DNA from: Escherichia coli
Lineage (GTDB): Bacteria; Pseudomonadota; Gammaproteobacteria; Enterobacterales; Enterobacteriaceae
Length of the DNA: 64,000 bases
NCBI RefSeq assembly: GCF_003019035.1
Contig: NZ_CP027447.1
Direction: 5' to 3' (one strand)
Both the position numbers and the translations under genes were made by a program. Under the pieces are notes generated by a model, which saw nothing but the letters and a program-made list of their open reading frames with translations, was not told the DNA's origin and did not search any database. How positions within the stretch are numbered: the first letter of the stretch is position 1; each line of letters begins with the position of its first letter. Positions 1-13,069 of the stretch are shown piece by piece.

Positions 1-636
1 TCTGTTAGCCTCAATCTCTACGTCTGTTTCTGTGTCAATGTCTAAATCATCGAGGATTGGCGTATCTAATTTATCATAGTGCAGAGCAATGTGGGATAAT
101 TCATGCATTAATGTAAACCAAAAGTAATCATATCTCGAATATCTTAAACTTAGACCTATGACTGGTGTTTTATTTGGTAAACAAAAGGTACAGCCATCTA
201 ACTTCATACCTTTGAATGATTTTTCAATTATTAGAATAATACCATATTCTTCTTTAAGGATTCTTGAAATATAATGAATAGATTGTACATCCCTGCTCAA
301 ACTTGCAATTATTCCGAGGTTTTCAAAATCCAGATCTGTGAAGACCTTTGTATTTCCTTTTAAATAGGTGTTTAATGACTTTTTTTCTATTAATGATAAC
401 CATAAATTTATGAGTTCAGAATTAGCATCATCTCTTTTTCTAAATAGTTTATTTTTGTTAAATGTTAAATTTTTTGCTACATCAAGTAGGAATTGATTTT
501 CGTTTTCCATTTCTGGTTTACGGGAAATAATATCTTTTATTTTTTTGCTGTTTTTTATCTTTTGGAAATTTAGTAAAATTTCCAAATCAGACTCACTAAA
601 CTGATTTGATACAAAGAAATCTTTCTCATGCGGCAT
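1..636 (-). CDS. ImmA/IrrE-like HEXXH zinc metallopeptidase domain protein, partial (3' end runs off the window)
   Basis: Absent from the ORF track because it is truncated. Manual minus-strand translation from ATG 636..634 gives about 210 codons with no stop, including ...IGLSLRYSRYDYFWFTLMHELSHIALHYDKLDTPILDD... (HELSH at about 105..91). The start overlaps the stop of the upstream ORF by 11 nt. Confidence 0.5.
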   Translation of the reverse strand, partial: MPHEKDFFVSNQFSESDLEILLNFQKIKNSKKIKDIISRKPEMENENQFLLDVAKNLTFNKNKLFRKRDDANSELINLWLSLIEKKSLNTYLKGNTKVFTDLDFENLGIIASLSRDVQSIHYISRILKEEYGIILIIEKSFKGMKLDGCTFCLPNKTPVIGLSLRYSRYDYFWFTLMHELSHIALHYDKLDTPILDDLDIDTETDVEIEANR

Positions 637-1273
637 TTGAAATTCCTCCGAGAGTTGATGCGACAACCTGTGATGCCTCATAAAATCGGAGATTTTCTTT
701 TTCATGGTCGACGCCAAAATCAGTCATGCCAAGATGGTTATAGAAACCCTCTGCACTTGGGAGTGCATGTAGGCAAAAACCAGGTCTATACCCCCAGTTT
801 GAACAGGCATAATTAATTGTATGTTGGATAAGCTCTTTGCCTACTCCACTATATTTAGGGGTAAAGTTAGGACGAGGACGATTCCAGTATGCTGTTGCAA
901 TATAATCCACGTAGAAAATTTTATTATTATCAAATCGACTTTCTTTTGGATGGTAAAGAACACAAACACCTTGAACTGCGTCGTTTATTTGCAGAAAAAA
1001 CCACTGATAATCATCACCATTACATTGCAAAAGCTTGCGGCACCAGTCCCAATGCCAATCAGAAAGGCTGTTATCTGCCAGAATTTTCCTTGCTAACTCG
1101 TTATCAGTGGCCATACCGGGGTTAGCAGTAATTAGAGCTGACAATAAATCAGCACGATAGGCACCCCATTTGCTCTGCAAGTCAACCACTTTAGCATAGT
1201 CAATCCCTACGTGAATTTGGTAATCAACTGATTTTCCTGAACAATTTTCAACGACCATAAGCTCCCTTTCCAT
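626..1273 (-). CDS. GNAT-family acetyltransferase-like protein (215 aa)
   Basis: ORF track. The segment ...KYSGVGKELIQHTINYACS...GFCLHALPSAEGFYNHLGM resembles GNAT motifs A/B (R/K-x-x-G-x-G, then A..FY...G). Its stop overlaps the start of the downstream peptidase-like ORF. Confidence 0.45.
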   Translation of the reverse strand: MERELMVVENCSGKSVDYQIHVGIDYAKVVDLQSKWGAYRADLLSALITANPGMATDNELARKILADNSLSDWHWDWCRKLLQCNGDDYQWFFLQINDAVQGVCVLYHPKESRFDNNKIFYVDYIATAYWNRPRPNFTPKYSGVGKELIQHTINYACSNWGYRPGFCLHALPSAEGFYNHLGMTDFGVDHEKENLRFYEASQVVASTLGGISNAA

Positions 1274-1505
1274 TGTGTCGGCTCATTTTGACTAATAATA
1301 CAACTTTATAGTCTTTAAGAATGCTCTGCTGGTCAAATTTCTTATTTGATCTATAGAAGGCTATGTTTTGAAGCTGGTTGTTAATCTGGTTATGATGTGG
1401 TCATATTAGAATTGGTAAATCAAACCAATTTTGTTGGTATGAATGATGGTATCTTCGCTAATGTAATATGCTTTATTCACTAAAAATCATAAGGATAGTT
1501 GCGAT

Positions 1506-1528
1506 GTTCGAGTCCGGCATCCGCACCA
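1506..1528 (+). other. tRNA 3'-end-like fragment (T-loop GTTCGAGTCC ... ACCA), not a complete tRNA
   Basis: GTTCGAGTCCGGCATCCGCACCA resembles the T-arm/acceptor 3' end of a tRNA (similar to the 3' end of tRNA-Leu leuX as I recall it). The upstream sequence does not form a cloverleaf. A small hairpin plus T-tract follows at about 1546..1568. Confidence 0.3.
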
Positions 1529-2203
1529 CACTGTATGCAAATCGAGTCGCTCAAGAGCGGCTTTTTTTGTGTCTGAAATCACCCATATCCGTGCAGTATA
1601 TAGGCCTGCCAGAAAAGCAATTCAGTATTCTTCATTTTGTAGTCGATGGTCCCAAGTTTGCTCTGGCTGGAAGCTGCATCGTCCACATTACGTGGGCAGG
1701 GTGGTTTCGCTATGCTACTTGAACGTTTTGACCATGTGGCTCAGGTAGCATATCAAAAGACGTCATTTTGTCTCCACGCCCACCTTGGTGAACATTCAAT
1801 AAATAGTTTCGGTCGAGAGCAGTTATGTAGGGCTAGCAGACGAAATGCGCAGACATCTTGTTGAAGACAATTTTACTGACCACCTGAGAACGCTATTCTA
1901 CCGAATAATATTTATTATCTTGGTGAATAATGATGATTACCTGTGTAACTATGGTTTTATGCTGATGGGACCGGCAGTACAATTTCTGTAGTGTACTCGC
2001 AATTTCAGGTCTCTGGCGTTTATTCTGGTGCAAAGGATGTATGTGATGAAAACTTTGCTACCATGCCATTAAATGCGACCAATATCGGATTATCCATCAG
2101 TTGCTTGTTGTAGATTTCATTGGTTATAAAAATGCAAGGTGTAAAAGATGAAATTTATAATTATTAGTTAAGTGGCTAGTTTTATAGTAATTTAGACAAT
2201 AGG

Positions 2204-4252
2204 ATGTATGGAAAAATGGAAAAAGTTTATGATACCACTAGAATTAGTAATCTTGCTAACGACCCGAAACAGTTTTGTTCTTTTTTTTGTGAGTACATAA
2301 AAAGAGATGATATTAGTATAGATATCGCCTTGGATGTGCTGAGAATATCTTCCATCTATTATAATAGATTTTCAGTTCAGACTGAAGTTGAGTATAACAA
2401 TACATTCAAAAAATGTATTAATGAGCTAGTAAACTCATTTCCTGATAACATTGAACTAATCTCTGAGTTCGAGAGTCAATGTAAAATTATGCATGATATA
2501 AATAATTCTTTCTTTGCGGCTACAAAATGTGCTGGTATTTGGCGTAAAAATACAAAAAAATCACATGCATTAATACTTAATCTCATCATGTTTTGTGAGA
2601 TGTTTTTATCATTATTATCATCCTTGGTTGTGGTCAATGATCCTAAAAAAATGAAGAGGATTTTTCCATTGTTTATCGTTTCTGAAAATATTAATATTCA
2701 TGCTGAACCTGATATCGAATATTTTCGAGTTATCGATAGGGCATTTGATGAGGTAGCCAATTACACCGGAAGAATATTTTCTTATTTACGGACTCATGGG
2801 CCATTGAAACTAACTTCTTGTGTGAATAAACAAACCTTGCTTTCAATGGGAGGGTACCTTAATGAGTGGAATGTTTTTGACTCATTAAGCAGAGTAAGAG
2901 ACTTTTTCAGACTAAGTAGTGCAGTATTTACAAAATTGGATAATAACATTTACTCTCTTGAGGTTGATAGTTTTTGTTTATACCGAGATTATGAGATTGC
3001 AAGAAATAGACTAATGATGAGAGCGTCACATCTATATAGCGAAGTTCATGAATTTAGTAACAAACATTTTCATCTAAATAGTTGGGTAAAGGATCATATG
3101 CCATCTTACTTAAATTCTGATGGCGTTTTTAGCTCATTTCATCTAAGCGAGTTGGAAAATATGTCTCCTGATGACCTTCATGAAGAATATGGGAATATAT
3201 CATTATTTAATTGGGTGCACGCTTATCAATGTTTAGTCGAGTTATCTAAAGAAGAAATGAGCAAAAGATTTTCATCGACAAAACCTATACCCCTACAGTT
3301 GGATCGCTGGCTGATCATAAAAAGCCGTGAGAGTTGGTTATCATTCTTTCAACGTAAGGGGATTGCAGTAGATGCAGCAAAAAAACTGATAGATTATTTT
3401 ACCTTCAATTCAAAATCACATGATCTTAATGATTGCCCATTTATTCCCTGTATGGACGGTTTATGCTTAATGCCTGCATTAATAGCAAATAGCTCAGTGA
3501 CTCGCTCTCTAATGTCATTATTTGGTTCCAAAAAAATTTCTCAAGCAAGTAAAGGGCGATTTCATGAGCAACAATTTATAAAACAAGTTCGTGATGCGGG
3601 GATTAAAGCTTCTCCAATTGATGCTCATGCTAATTATCAGTGCGATTGCGTGATTCTCCTGGATGATTGTTTGATTTTTACAGAACTAAAATCAAATGGT
3701 CAACCAATATATTATGGTAAGTACTATCAGCAAGTGTGTAACATCGTTGGAGATAGCTCATTAATACATGATCATAATAATAAATTTATGCGTTCTTATT
3801 TTCAACAAATAAATCGAATTTCTGAACATTATCTTAATCATCTTAATGTGATCATTAAAGAATTCGAACTACCATCAACATGGCAACCCAAAGGTGTGTA
3901 TAAGCTTATTGTTACTACAACTATGCTCGGTGGGAAATATCATGTGGATGATACATATGTAGCGGACAAATATGCATTATCTAGTTTTTTTCAACGAATA
4001 CCTGGAGTGATATATCAAACAAATGAAAATGGAAAAATGGCGAAAAATATCATTGATGGGTTTGAGTGTTGCGAAGGGGAAATCACTATCGATAAGTTTA
4101 TAGATTATCTTTCCTCTTTGCCCAGTATTAATGCTGTACGTAAAAATATAAAAAAATTAACTTATAGTGTTCGATTTAATGAAAAATTAGTCCATCACCC
4201 TTATTATGATTCTTGGGCTTTTGGCCCATATATTCGTAAGGGAAATGATTAG
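2204..4252 (+). CDS. Hypothetical protein, 682 aa, very AT-rich; possible PD-(D/E)XK-type nuclease motif in the C-terminal third
   Basis: Long uninterrupted ORF in the track. N/K/I/F/Y-rich composition, no recognisable Walker motif. The segment ...CDCVILLDDCLIFTELK... fits a hhhD...ExK nuclease-like pattern. A hairpin plus T-tract follows immediately downstream. Confidence 0.6.
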   Translation: MYGKMEKVYDTTRISNLANDPKQFCSFFCEYIKRDDISIDIALDVLRISSIYYNRFSVQTEVEYNNTFKKCINELVNSFPDNIELISEFESQCKIMHDINNSFFAATKCAGIWRKNTKKSHALILNLIMFCEMFLSLLSSLVVVNDPKKMKRIFPLFIVSENINIHAEPDIEYFRVIDRAFDEVANYTGRIFSYLRTHGPLKLTSCVNKQTLLSMGGYLNEWNVFDSLSRVRDFFRLSSAVFTKLDNNIYSLEVDSFCLYRDYEIARNRLMMRASHLYSEVHEFSNKHFHLNSWVKDHMPSYLNSDGVFSSFHLSELENMSPDDLHEEYGNISLFNWVHAYQCLVELSKEEMSKRFSSTKPIPLQLDRWLIIKSRESWLSFFQRKGIAVDAAKKLIDYFTFNSKSHDLNDCPFIPCMDGLCLMPALIANSSVTRSLMSLFGSKKISQASKGRFHEQQFIKQVRDAGIKASPIDAHANYQCDCVILLDDCLIFTELKSNGQPIYYGKYYQQVCNIVGDSSLIHDHNNKFMRSYFQQINRISEHYLNHLNVIIKEFELPSTWQPKGVYKLIVTTTMLGGKYHVDDTYVADKYALSSFFQRIPGVIYQTNENGKMAKNIIDGFECCEGEITIDKFIDYLSSLPSINAVRKNIKKLTYSVRFNEKLVHHPYYDSWAFGPYIRKGND

Positions 4253-4274
4253 AGCAATTTATTATATAGTCCAT

Positions 4275-4331
4275 GTTATTCACTGATTATATTATTGATA
4301 ATATAATCAGTGAATAACTCTAATTTTTTTA
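4275..4331 (+). terminator. Putative intrinsic terminator after the 682-aa ORF
   Basis: 44-nt near-perfect inverted repeat (gttattcactgattatattatt / gataatataatcagtgaataac) followed by T-tract ttttttt at 4325..4331. Confidence 0.45.
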
Positions 4332-4640
4332 ATGTTGGGGTTTAGCCTGAAGTTGAAATTGGTACTACGGAACGGTATGATCATATCGCATCAAAATATC
4401 AAGGTAGTGATGATTTTCTACGCACCGATCCAGAAATGTGGATTTTATCATCACCATAAGCAATGGCAGCGACAACACCATCAATTTCTATATCAAAGGT
4501 GGTAAAATAAATTAGAAAATTGTTTATTTAATCCATTAGCGATAAGTTTTATTGTTATTTAGCCGAGATATATTCCATTGAAAAAAGTAAATTGGCACTG
4601 ATATTATATCAAATGGGAATAATCCTTTTGTAAATAAGCT

Positions 4641-4830
4641 GAGGAATGTGTTAATTCACATCCAGCGCCTTATAAACCGCATCAACCGGTTCTGAGTAAA
4701 AACTTACCTGAAACTTGGTAAACAACTCTGCCGGAACTGTTGGAATATCCATAGCCGAGGATATCGGCAACAGAACTCGTTTTGCGCCGCTATCGAAGGC
4801 GAGTTGTAAACTAGCGGCAAGATCCTGCAC
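4641..4830 (-). pseudogene. Lon-protease-like C-terminal fragment (gene remnant)
   Basis: Minus-strand translation (V)QDLAASLQLAFDSGAKRVLLPISSAMDIPTVPAELFTKFQVSFYSEPVDAVYKALDVN* resembles the extreme C-terminus of Lon/S16 peptidase domains (compare E. coli Lon ...AAHRGGIKTVLIPFENKRDLEEIPDNVIADLDIHPV...EEVLTLAL). Only about 60 codons, with an in-frame stop immediately upstream. Confidence 0.35.
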
Positions 4831-4874
4831 TGATTATGTCAGCAATATTGAACATACTGCGATAGTTATCAACC

Positions 4875-5804
4875 TCACCCCCTAAAAACCTCTTTCCGAT
4901 GCCACTCCACAAATCCCTCATAAGGGTAATTTTTACGTACCTGCGGCAACGCAATAGTTTTCCCGTCAAAATCCCAGAATAGTTTCTCAACGATCCCTCC
5001 GCCGTTTACCGCATCTGATACCAGTACCCGCATATTTTCATCCAGGCCAATCGATCCTTTATCAAAGGCTTTATGGTGTATTGCACAAAGCGCCAGACCA
5101 TTAGGAATTTCACAAGGACCGCCGTGCTGTTTCCATTTTATATGCGCCGCTTCCAGCGCGACGGTGGTGTCGTCGTGGCGCATATTAAAGCCACATATCG
5201 CGCACTGGTAGTTATAAGCGCGTAATACATTTTTGCGAAATAACGGGTCGCGCTGTTTACGGATTTGCTGGAGATCAAAACCCAGTTCGTCAGCAATTTC
5301 TTCCTGAATACTCTCGGTGAAGTGCGCTTCGAGTATCTGTTGCGCCAGAGTATTGATGAGTTTTTTATTGCCAGTTACCAGGGCGTAGTGCTGTTCATCG
5401 AAACCGCCTGCAACGTGGTATTCAGTCAGTTCCTTCACTGGTGGTTGTCGGCTGCTCCCTGCTGTTGAGCAAAGCCCGGCATTGTGTAATTGCCAGAATC
5501 CGTCGCCTTGTAATCGCCAGAACGGCATATCAGGTCGGTACTGTGAACGCTGTGGCCCAAAACGTTCCAGTAAATTGTGCAGAGGTTCGTAGATTTCCGA
5601 TCCATAATCGAAAAGGCGCGGATGCCCATTCAGGTATCCCGCTAATACGTATAGCAGTAACAATGGTTTATGCGGCGCGCGCTGTTCACCCTTGTGCCAG
5701 ATTTTTATATTGGCAATTGCCTGCTGTAGCGATTTACTGGAAGCCATTGATATCCCTGGCAGTGAAATAATTGCGATCATGCTCGCAAATTTTCTGCTGT
5801 TCAA
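4875..5804 (-). CDS. HNH endonuclease domain protein with uncharacterised N-terminal domain (McrA-like architecture)
   Basis: ORF track. C-terminal ...YQCAICGFNMRHDDTTVALEAAHIKWKQHGGPCEIPNGLALCAIHHKAFD... is an HNH signature (C-x2-C ... H ... N ... C-x2-H). The true start may be the internal Met near 5747. Confidence 0.6.
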   Translation of the reverse strand: MNSRKFASMIAIISLPGISMASSKSLQQAIANIKIWHKGEQRAPHKPLLLLYVLAGYLNGHPRLFDYGSEIYEPLHNLLERFGPQRSQYRPDMPFWRLQGDGFWQLHNAGLCSTAGSSRQPPVKELTEYHVAGGFDEQHYALVTGNKKLINTLAQQILEAHFTESIQEEIADELGFDLQQIRKQRDPLFRKNVLRAYNYQCAICGFNMRHDDTTVALEAAHIKWKQHGGPCEIPNGLALCAIHHKAFDKGSIGLDENMRVLVSDAVNGGGIVEKLFWDFDGKTIALPQVRKNYPYEGFVEWHRKEVFRG

Positions 5805-10299: not shown

Positions 10300-10902
10300 A
10301 TGAAGAATAAGGCTGATAACAAAAAAAGGAACTTCCTGACCCATAGTGAAATCGAATCACTCCTTAAAGCAGCAAATACCGGGCCTCATGCAGCACGTAA
10401 TTATTGTCTGACTTTGCTTTGTTTTATTCATGGTTTCCGGGCGAGTGAAATTTGTCGATTGAGGATTTCGGATATTGATCTTAAGGCAAAGTGTATATAT
10501 ATCCATCGATTAAAAAAAGGCTTTTCAACAACGCACCCGCTATTGAACAAAGAAGTTCAGGCTTTAAAAAACTGGTTGAGTATCCGTACTTCTTATCCGC
10601 ATGCTGAGAGCGAGTGGGTATTTTTATCACGTAAGGGGAATCCGCTTTCTCGGCAACAGTTTTACCATATTATCTCGACTTCTGGTGGTAATGCCGGGTT
10701 GTCACTGGAGATTCATCCGCACATGTTACGCCATTCGTGTGGTTTTGCTTTGGCGAATATGGGAATAGATACGCGACTTATCCAGGATTATCTTGGGCAT
10801 CGCAATATTCGTCATACTGTCTGGTATACCGCCAGCAATGCAGGGCGTTTTTACGGCATCTGGGATAGAGCCAGAGGGAGACAGCGTCACGCTGTTTTAT
10901 AG
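10300..10902 (+). CDS. fimB: Type 1 fimbriae recombinase FimB
   Basis: 200-aa tyrosine-recombinase ORF (…HPHMLRHSCGFALANMGIDTRLIQDYLGHRNIRHTVWYT…); position upstream of fimE. Confidence 0.9.
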   Translation: MKNKADNKKRNFLTHSEIESLLKAANTGPHAARNYCLTLLCFIHGFRASEICRLRISDIDLKAKCIYIHRLKKGFSTTHPLLNKEVQALKNWLSIRTSYPHAESEWVFLSRKGNPLSRQQFYHIISTSGGNAGLSLEIHPHMLRHSCGFALANMGIDTRLIQDYLGHRNIRHTVWYTASNAGRFYGIWDRARGRQRHAVL

Positions 10903-11379: not shown

Positions 11380-11976
11380 GTGAGTAAACGTCGTTATCTT
11401 ACCGGTAAAGAAGTTCAGGCCATGATGCAGGCGGTTTGTTACGGGGCAACGGGAGCCAGAGATTATTGTCTTATTCTGTTGGCATATCGGCATGGGATGC
11501 GTATTAGTGAACTGCTTGATCTGCATTATCAGGATCTTGACCTTAATGAAGGTCGAATAAATATTCGCCGACTGAAGAACGGATTTTCTACCGTTCACCC
11601 GTTACGTTATGATGAGCGTGAAGCCGTGGAACGCTGGACCCAGGAACGTGCTAACTGGAAAGGCGCTGACCGGACCGACGCTATATTTATTTCTCGCCGT
11701 GGGAGTCGGCTTTCTCGCCAGCAGGCCTATCGCATTATTCGCGATGCCGGTATTGAAGCTGGAACCGTAACGCAGACTCATCCTCATATGTTAAGGCATG
11801 CTTGCGGTTATGAACTGGCAGAGCGTGGTGCAGATACCCGTTTAATTCAGGATTATCTCGGGCATCGAAATATTCGCCATACTGTGCGTTATACCGCCAG
11901 TAATGCTGCTCGTTTTGCCGGATTATGGGAAAGAAATAATCTCATAAACGAAAAATTAAAAAGAGAAGAGGTTTGA
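11380..11976 (+). CDS. fimE: Type 1 fimbriae recombinase FimE
   Basis: 198-aa tyrosine recombinase paralogous to FimB; synteny. Confidence 0.9.
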   Translation: MSKRRYLTGKEVQAMMQAVCYGATGARDYCLILLAYRHGMRISELLDLHYQDLDLNEGRINIRRLKNGFSTVHPLRYDEREAVERWTQERANWKGADRTDAIFISRRGSRLSRQQAYRIIRDAGIEAGTVTQTHPHMLRHACGYELAERGADTRLIQDYLGHRNIRHTVRYTASNAARFAGLWERNNLINEKLKREEV

Positions 11977-12023
11977 TTTAACTTATTGATAATAAAGTTA
12001 AAAAACAAATAAATACAAGACAA

Positions 12024-12337
12024 TTGGGGCCAAACTGTCCATATCATAAATAAGTTACGTATTTTTTCTCAAGCATAAAAATATCAAAAAACGACAAAAA
12101 GCATCTAACTGTTTGATATGTAAATTATTTCTCTTGTAAATTAATTTCACATCACCTCCGCTATATGTAAAGCTAACGTTTCTGTGGCTCGATGCATCTT
12201 CCTCATTCTTCTCTCCAAAAACCACCTCATGCAATATAAAAATCTATAAATAAAGATAACAATAGAATATTAAGCCAACAAATAAACTGAAAAAGTTTGT
12301 GCGCGATGCTTTCCTCTATGAGTCAAAATGGCCCCAA
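12024..12337. promoter_or_regulatory. fimS: fimS invertible promoter element (fim switch), apparently in OFF orientation
   Basis: 9-bp inverted repeats TTGGGGCCA (12024..12032) and TGGCCCCAA (12329..12337) bound a 314-bp element. A sigma70-like promoter (-35 TTGAGA at 12072..12067, 18-nt spacer, -10 TATGAT at 12048..12043) lies on the minus strand, reading toward fimE rather than fimA. Confidence 0.7.
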
Positions 12338-12456
12338 ATGTTTCATCTTTTGGGGGGAAACTGTGCAGTGTTGGCAGTCAAACTCGTTGACAAAACAAAG
12401 CGTACAGAACGACTGCCCATGTCGATTTAGAAATAGTTTTTTTAAAGGAAAGCAGC

Positions 12457-13005
12457 ATGAAAATTAAAACTCTGGCAATCGTTGTTCTGTCGGCTCTGTC
12501 CCTCAGTTCCGCAGCGGCTCTGGCTGATACTACGACGGTAAATGGTGGGACCGTTCACTTTAAAGGGGAAGTTGTTAACGCCGCTTGCGCAGTTGATGCA
12601 GGCTCTGTTGATCAAACCGTTCAGTTAGGACAGGTTCGTACCGCATCGCTGGCACAAGAAGGAGCAACCAGTTCTGCTGTCGGTTTTAACATTCAACTGA
12701 ACGATTGTGACACTACTGTTGCAGACAAAGCTGCTATTGCCTTCCTTGGTACCGCAATTGATGGAACTCATCCTAACGTATTAGCTTTGCAGAGTTCAGC
12801 TGCGGGTAGCGCAACAAAAGTTGGTGTGCAGATCCTGGACAGAACGGGTGCTGTGCTGGCGCTGGACGGTGCGACATTCAGTGAGCAAACAACCCTGAAT
12901 AACGGTACTAACACCATTCCGTTCCAGGCGCGTTATTATGCAACCGGTGTCGCAACCCCGGGTGCTGCTAATGCGGATGCGACCTTCAAGGTTCAGTATC
13001 AATAA
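12457..13005 (+). CDS. fimA: Type 1 fimbrial major subunit FimA
   Basis: 182-aa pilin with signal peptide and C-terminal ...KVQYQ. Confidence 0.9.
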
Positions 13006-13069
13006 CCTACCCAGGATCAGGGACGTCATTACGGGCAGGGATGCCCACCCTTGTGCGATAAAAATAACG

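Follow-up and report, generated by a model that had tools for sequence, protein, structure and literature searches.

The 314-bp segment at positions 12024–12337 of the window, the 64-kb stretch of E. coli DNA analysed here, is almost certainly the canonical phase switch of E. coli type 1 fimbriae, fimS, in its phase-OFF orientation. The features that define fimS and its OFF state, in so far as they can be tested on sequence, were all found in the window, and the assignment draws on alignment with the MG1655 element, two in-silico switch assays and a census of complete genomes. The finding itself is already known: this is a long-studied, textbook DNA-inversion switch in its usual state, OFF being the orientation found in the K-12 reference and in roughly 95% of the complete genomes of E. 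coli. In the orientation recorded in the window, fimA is cut off from its promoter. The fim operon here should not, however, be annotated as promoterless or defective, since the promoter is present and simply inverted.

The fimS element and its flanking genes

The element is delimited by two perfect 9-bp inverted repeats: a left repeat (IRL, TTGGGGCCA, 12024–12032, plus strand), a recombination site identical to that of MG1655, and a right repeat (IRR, TGGCCCCAA, 12329–12337, plus strand), which is the reverse complement of TTGGGGCCA. Between them lies a 296-bp core, giving 314 bp overall, and this arrangement is the one described for fimS in the literature, an element of approximately 314 bp with 9-bp inverted repeats (PMC2647292, PMC9993118). 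Just two copies of the 9-mer are present within the 64-kb window. As two or more matches to it were also seen in 14 of 100 shuffles, the repeat pair is unremarkable alone, and repeat statistics were dropped as stand-alone evidence for fimS. Instead, we regard the element as real because of its context, between fimE and fimA, and because of its homology to MG1655 fimS.

The genes fimB, fimE and fimA all lie on the plus strand. The gene for the tyrosine recombinase FimB (10300–10902) is a 200-aa ORF whose syntenic counterparts in MG1655 and E. coli TCM3e1 are annotated fimB, and its predicted product has the same amino-acid sequence as MG1655 FimB. It is followed by fimE (11380–11976), a second tyrosine recombinase gene, which is a 198-aa ORF with a GTG start, is matched by genes annotated fimE, and differs in its product from MG1655 FimE by a single substitution, F77Y. 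On the other side of fimS, a 182-aa ORF (12457–13005) that corresponds to fimA in the matching genomes encodes the major type 1 fimbrial subunit, and is the first gene of fimAICDFGH. Chaperone-usher genes lie downstream of fimA, and the full flanking set comprises fimB, fimE, fimA, fimI, fimC and fimD. Compared with K-12 FimA, the predicted FimA carries 16 substitutions and represents a divergent allele, a degree of change in keeping with antigenic variation in this major subunit.

A homologue of the small RNA FimR2 is found between fimA and fimI, at 13016–13050 on the plus strand, where 34 of 35 bases are as in MG1655 b4838. Scans of the whole window for tRNAs and for Rfam families, the latter at the gathering threshold, returned no matches, and the region of the FimR2 homologue was likewise assigned to no family by the Rfam scan.

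Orientation of the switch in in-silico assays

The orientation of the element was tested by running in silico two published PCR/restriction assays that had been calibrated on phase-ON and phase-OFF bacteria, using the window with its 296-bp core inverted in silico as the ON control. One of these relies on a BstUI site (CGCG), which is unique in the fim switch and lies between LRP-2 and IRR (PMC9993118). In-silico digestion located the sole BstUI site inside the window's fimS at 12302–12305; a second CGCG, at 11740, lies in fimE on the upstream side of OL20 and so belongs neither to the element nor to the amplicon. The assay primers OL20 and OL4 (PMC9993118) find exact matches at 11765 and 12472–12491, respectively. 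The published pattern for this primer pair after BstUI digestion is 539 + 187 bp in phase OFF and 433 + 293 bp in phase ON (PMC9993118). The window yielded fragments of 539 + 188 bp, and the inverted core yielded 293 + 434 bp. The 1-bp departure from the published K-12 sizes (727 versus 726 bp for the product and 188 versus 187 bp for the smaller OFF fragment) is trivial.

The HinfI assay also gave the OFF pattern. Its orientation marker inside fimS is a HinfI site (GAGTC) at 12320–12324, again located by in-silico digestion. Here, the published pattern on the 650-bp product of primers CMD1258 and CMD1259 is 411 + 239 bp in phase OFF and 128 + 522 bp in phase ON (PMC6727828). In the window, the amplicon of these primers spans 11910–12559 (650 bp), and HinfI cut it into 411 + 239 bp in the recorded orientation and into 128 + 522 bp after inversion of the core. 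Two further primers, CMD1247 and CMD1248, which belong to another assay described in the PMC6727828 supplement, have no site in the window within three mismatches.

A third line of evidence comes from the primers used to generate a Fis EMSA probe (PMC9993118), which map to 12222–12356 and delimit 135 bp, the published probe length. This promoter-distal probe falls at the IRR end of the window's fimS, which implies that the promoter-bearing end is the IRL end and that the promoter faces outward, toward fimE. The BstUI assay, the HinfI assay and the position of the Fis probe all agree, supporting the assignment of the window to phase OFF on the basis of its sequence.

These results bear out most of the original prediction. 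It had described an intact 314-bp element bounded by 9-bp inverted repeats, which are those at 12024–12032 and 12329–12337, and had called it OFF, a call with which the BstUI and HinfI patterns, the Fis probe and the orientation of MG1655 all concur. Its claim that fimA would not be served by the switch promoter is likewise supported by the OFF patterns in both in-silico assays. It had also proposed orientation-specific PCR and comparison with a reference as checks: the two PCR/restriction assays run in silico gave OFF fragments, and the comparison showed the same orientation as in MG1655, with a phase-ON genome, M172-1, carrying the inverted version.

Candidate regulatory signals at the switch

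The top sigma-70-like match in the interval 11900–12500 is a candidate PfimA core promoter on the minus strand (12043–12072), which matches the consensus at 10 of 12 positions and consists of a −35 hexamer TTGAGA (12072–12067), an 18-nt spacer and a −10 hexamer TATGAT (12048–12043). The candidate adjoins IRL and reads outward across it toward the 3' end of fimE, exactly as the original prediction had described. That prediction had also called this the only good promoter inside the element, and here only part of the claim stood: the site is the top match but not the sole one, as there are two further 9/12 matches inside fimS, one on the plus strand at 12113–12142 (TTGATA-18-TAAATT), facing fimA, and one on the minus strand at 12262–12233. 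With three sigma-70-like matches in the 600 bp between 11900 and 12500, against 1.9 ± 1.5 in shuffles, the number of matches is not above chance. A consensus match is therefore unable to decide the orientation by itself, and promoter scanning was rejected as sole evidence. Full-text literature searches for the published −35/−10 hexamers and start site of PfimA did not find them, so the orientation was settled by the calibration of the restriction assays; a bioRxiv paper on pilus assembly and the FimR2 paper go no further than locating the promoter within the element. Olsen and Klemm (1994) reportedly ascribed the TTGAGA and TATGAT hexamers to PfimA.

Two exact matches to the IHF consensus WATCAANNNNTTR are present at the switch, both on the minus strand, out of four in the 64-kb window. 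The first (11979–11991) lies just outside IRL, at the position of IHF-1, and the second (12106–12118) lies inside fimS, at the position of IHF-2, approximately 35–45 bp upstream of the −35 hexamer on the promoter strand. In the published switch, IHF-1 adjoins IRL, and IHF-2 is located inside fimS, where it boosts the fimA promoter (PMC9993118); both of our predicted sites agree in position with IHF-1 and IHF-2 of that study. A scan for intrinsic terminators in 11900–12500 found none, which fits the terminator in this region being Rho-dependent.

We also observed an imperfect 16-nt inverted repeat, 88% complementary, between 11979–11994 and 12042–12057. In the OFF orientation, one arm falls in the IHF-1 region on the left-hand side of IRL and the other in the −10 region of the switch promoter, and the pairing may be a chance product of AT-rich DNA.

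Comparison with other E. coli genomes

In K-12 MG1655 (NC_000913.3), fimS lies between fimE (b4313) and fimA (b4314) and is like the window's element in locus, 314-bp length, 9-bp repeats and orientation. The two elements align without gaps and are identical at 309 of 314 bases. The five substitutions, at 12085, 12133, 12193, 12241 and 12301, spare the repeats and the promoter hexamers; two of them lie under the promoter-distal Fis probe, and one of these two is the base immediately before the BstUI site. In addition, the run of A residues to the left of IRL is one A shorter in the window than in MG1655. Closer matches are found among natural isolates. E. coli SMS-3-5 (NC_010498.1), TCM3e1 and others are 100% identical to the window over a 614-bp span made up of the fimE 3' end, fimS and the fimA 5' end, are also OFF, and show 99.2–99.8% identity across a 1,626-bp stretch running from fimE to fimA. 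While isolates of this type carry a switch without differences from that of the window, they differ in the accessory content of the wider region.

We then surveyed 5,426 complete RefSeq E. coli genomes with a 614-bp query consisting of fimS and 150 bp of flank on either side, presented both as it stands in the window and with an in-silico inversion of the core, and counted the genomes in which at least 80% of the query was covered. These queries replaced a 1,626-bp query that was blind to orientation, as its flanks alone make up more than 80% of its length. The query in the window (OFF) orientation was covered to at least 80% in 4,457 genomes and the core-inverted (ON) query in 248; both 614-bp queries matched 4,719 genomes. 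About 94.7% of the 4,705 classifiable genomes were OFF and 5.3% were ON. This excess of OFF agrees with published reports that FimE activity predominates and that most cells are non-piliated, as well as with an evolution study in which the ancestral state is described as OFF, and the counts provide a useful baseline in line with published biology.

One of the ON genomes, E. coli M172-1 (NZ_CP058714.1), carries the same allele and flanks as the window, with the 296-bp core inverted and the promoter facing fimA. It is 100% identical to the window allele inverted in silico, which indicates that this allele has undergone natural inversion at exactly these repeats.

Proposed operation of the switch

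According to the literature, FimB inverts fimS in both directions and FimE acts mainly from ON to OFF. Inversion proceeds through cleavage and religation within the 9-bp repeats, with IHF and Lrp as accessory factors, and determines whether PfimA drives fimAICDFGH (ON) or is disconnected from fimA (OFF) (PMC2647292, PMC9993118). In phase OFF, fimS also contains a Rho-dependent terminator that cuts the fimE mRNA short and makes it unstable (PMC2647292).

Applied to the window, this model would place the fimA promoter near one end of fimS, in this case the end abutting IRL. Transcription from the switch promoter would be expected to start on the minus strand around position 12036 and to run through IRL into the 3' end of fimE, in antisense, and in this orientation fimAICDFGH would lack a switch-borne promoter. 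Recombination within the repeats by FimB (both directions) and FimE (ON to OFF), aided by IHF and Lrp, would invert the 296-bp core and rejoin the promoter to fimA. In the OFF orientation, the fimE transcript would meet the Rho-dependent terminator of the element and be shortened and destabilised as a result. As the repeats, both recombinase ORFs and the IHF consensus sites are intact and the element has kept its length, we infer that the window's switch is live and probably invertible, rather than locked.

Alternative interpretations of the recorded phase

Could the element instead be in the ON orientation, with fimA served by the plus-strand site at 12113–12142 or by another plus-strand site? 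A 9/12 sigma-70-like match that faces fimA does exist inside fimS, but it is weaker than the minus-strand candidate, and matches of this kind are expected by chance in AT-rich DNA. Moreover, two independent published assays, each calibrated to a fimbriation or reporter phenotype, give OFF, and the literature places the promoter-distal end of the element on the IRR side in phase OFF. The BstUI and HinfI assays run in silico effectively refute the ON orientation, and we consider it next to impossible. A different proposal accepts that the switch is OFF but holds that it is locked, so that the orientation reflects a fixed genotype and not a captured phase. Precedent exists in the enteropathogenic strain EPEC E2348/69, which is reported to be locked OFF despite having fimS, and the window does differ from K-12 by five fimS substitutions as well as by F77Y in FimE. 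Against this, the element is exactly 314 bp and free of indels, with intact repeats, IHF consensus sites and recombinase ORFs, and M172-1 holds the exact reverse orientation of the same 614-bp allele at 100% identity; a locked switch is thus very improbable.

It is also conceivable that the recorded orientation is an assembly artefact, an arbitrary choice made from a mixed ON/OFF population that would reveal little about the culture. While mixed orientations within a culture are inherent to fimS, the majority arrangement is what consensus assemblers normally report, and the roughly 95:5 ratio in favour of OFF among complete genomes matches the published predominance of FimE and of non-piliated cells, which leaves an artefact of this type highly unlikely. 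It is reasonable to see in the assembly the OFF phase, or the state of most cells, in the culture that was sequenced, and the orientation should be taken only as a snapshot of the majority state of that one culture. Finally, given the five fimS substitutions and FimE F77Y, the kinetics or bias of switching may be altered in this allele relative to K-12; alternatively, the weak plus-strand site at 12113–12142 might support low-level transcription of fimA in the OFF state. We see only a slim chance of either, and, if true, altered switching or weak OFF-state transcription would be no more than a modest quantitative variant of a textbook system. The preferred reading is a canonical fimS in phase OFF.

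Other features of the window

Outside the fim region, the first 5,804 bp of the window (1–5804), upstream of nanS, form a variable region. It includes an ORF resembling HNH restriction endonucleases at 4875–5804 on the minus strand (Pfam HNH_2; PADLOC HNH, E = 3e-25). Two other ORFs within it, one of 215 aa at 626–1273 (minus strand) and one of 682 aa at 2204–4252 (plus strand), have no Pfam or PADLOC match. At the same position, TCM3e1 carries a type I restriction-modification system and a gene for a TIR-domain protein, and on this basis 1–5804 looks like a defence-island hotspot.

A block of approximately 20 kb (26874–47051) is missing from the syntenic stretch of TCM3e1, the closest match to the window in the fim region. 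The block encodes a DhaM-like EIIA-HPr-EI fusion, a Dak1 dihydroxyacetone kinase subunit, a BCCT transporter, a TPP enzyme and a sigma-54 activator with a PAS domain and, judging from these predicted products, looks like an accessory metabolic island. Further downstream, a 1,746-aa ORF on the minus strand (51395–56635), flanked by kptA-like and yjiJ-like ORFs, combines an inverse-autotransporter beta domain with eight Big_1 and seven Invasin_D3 repeats, and its predicted product is an intimin/invasin-like adhesin.
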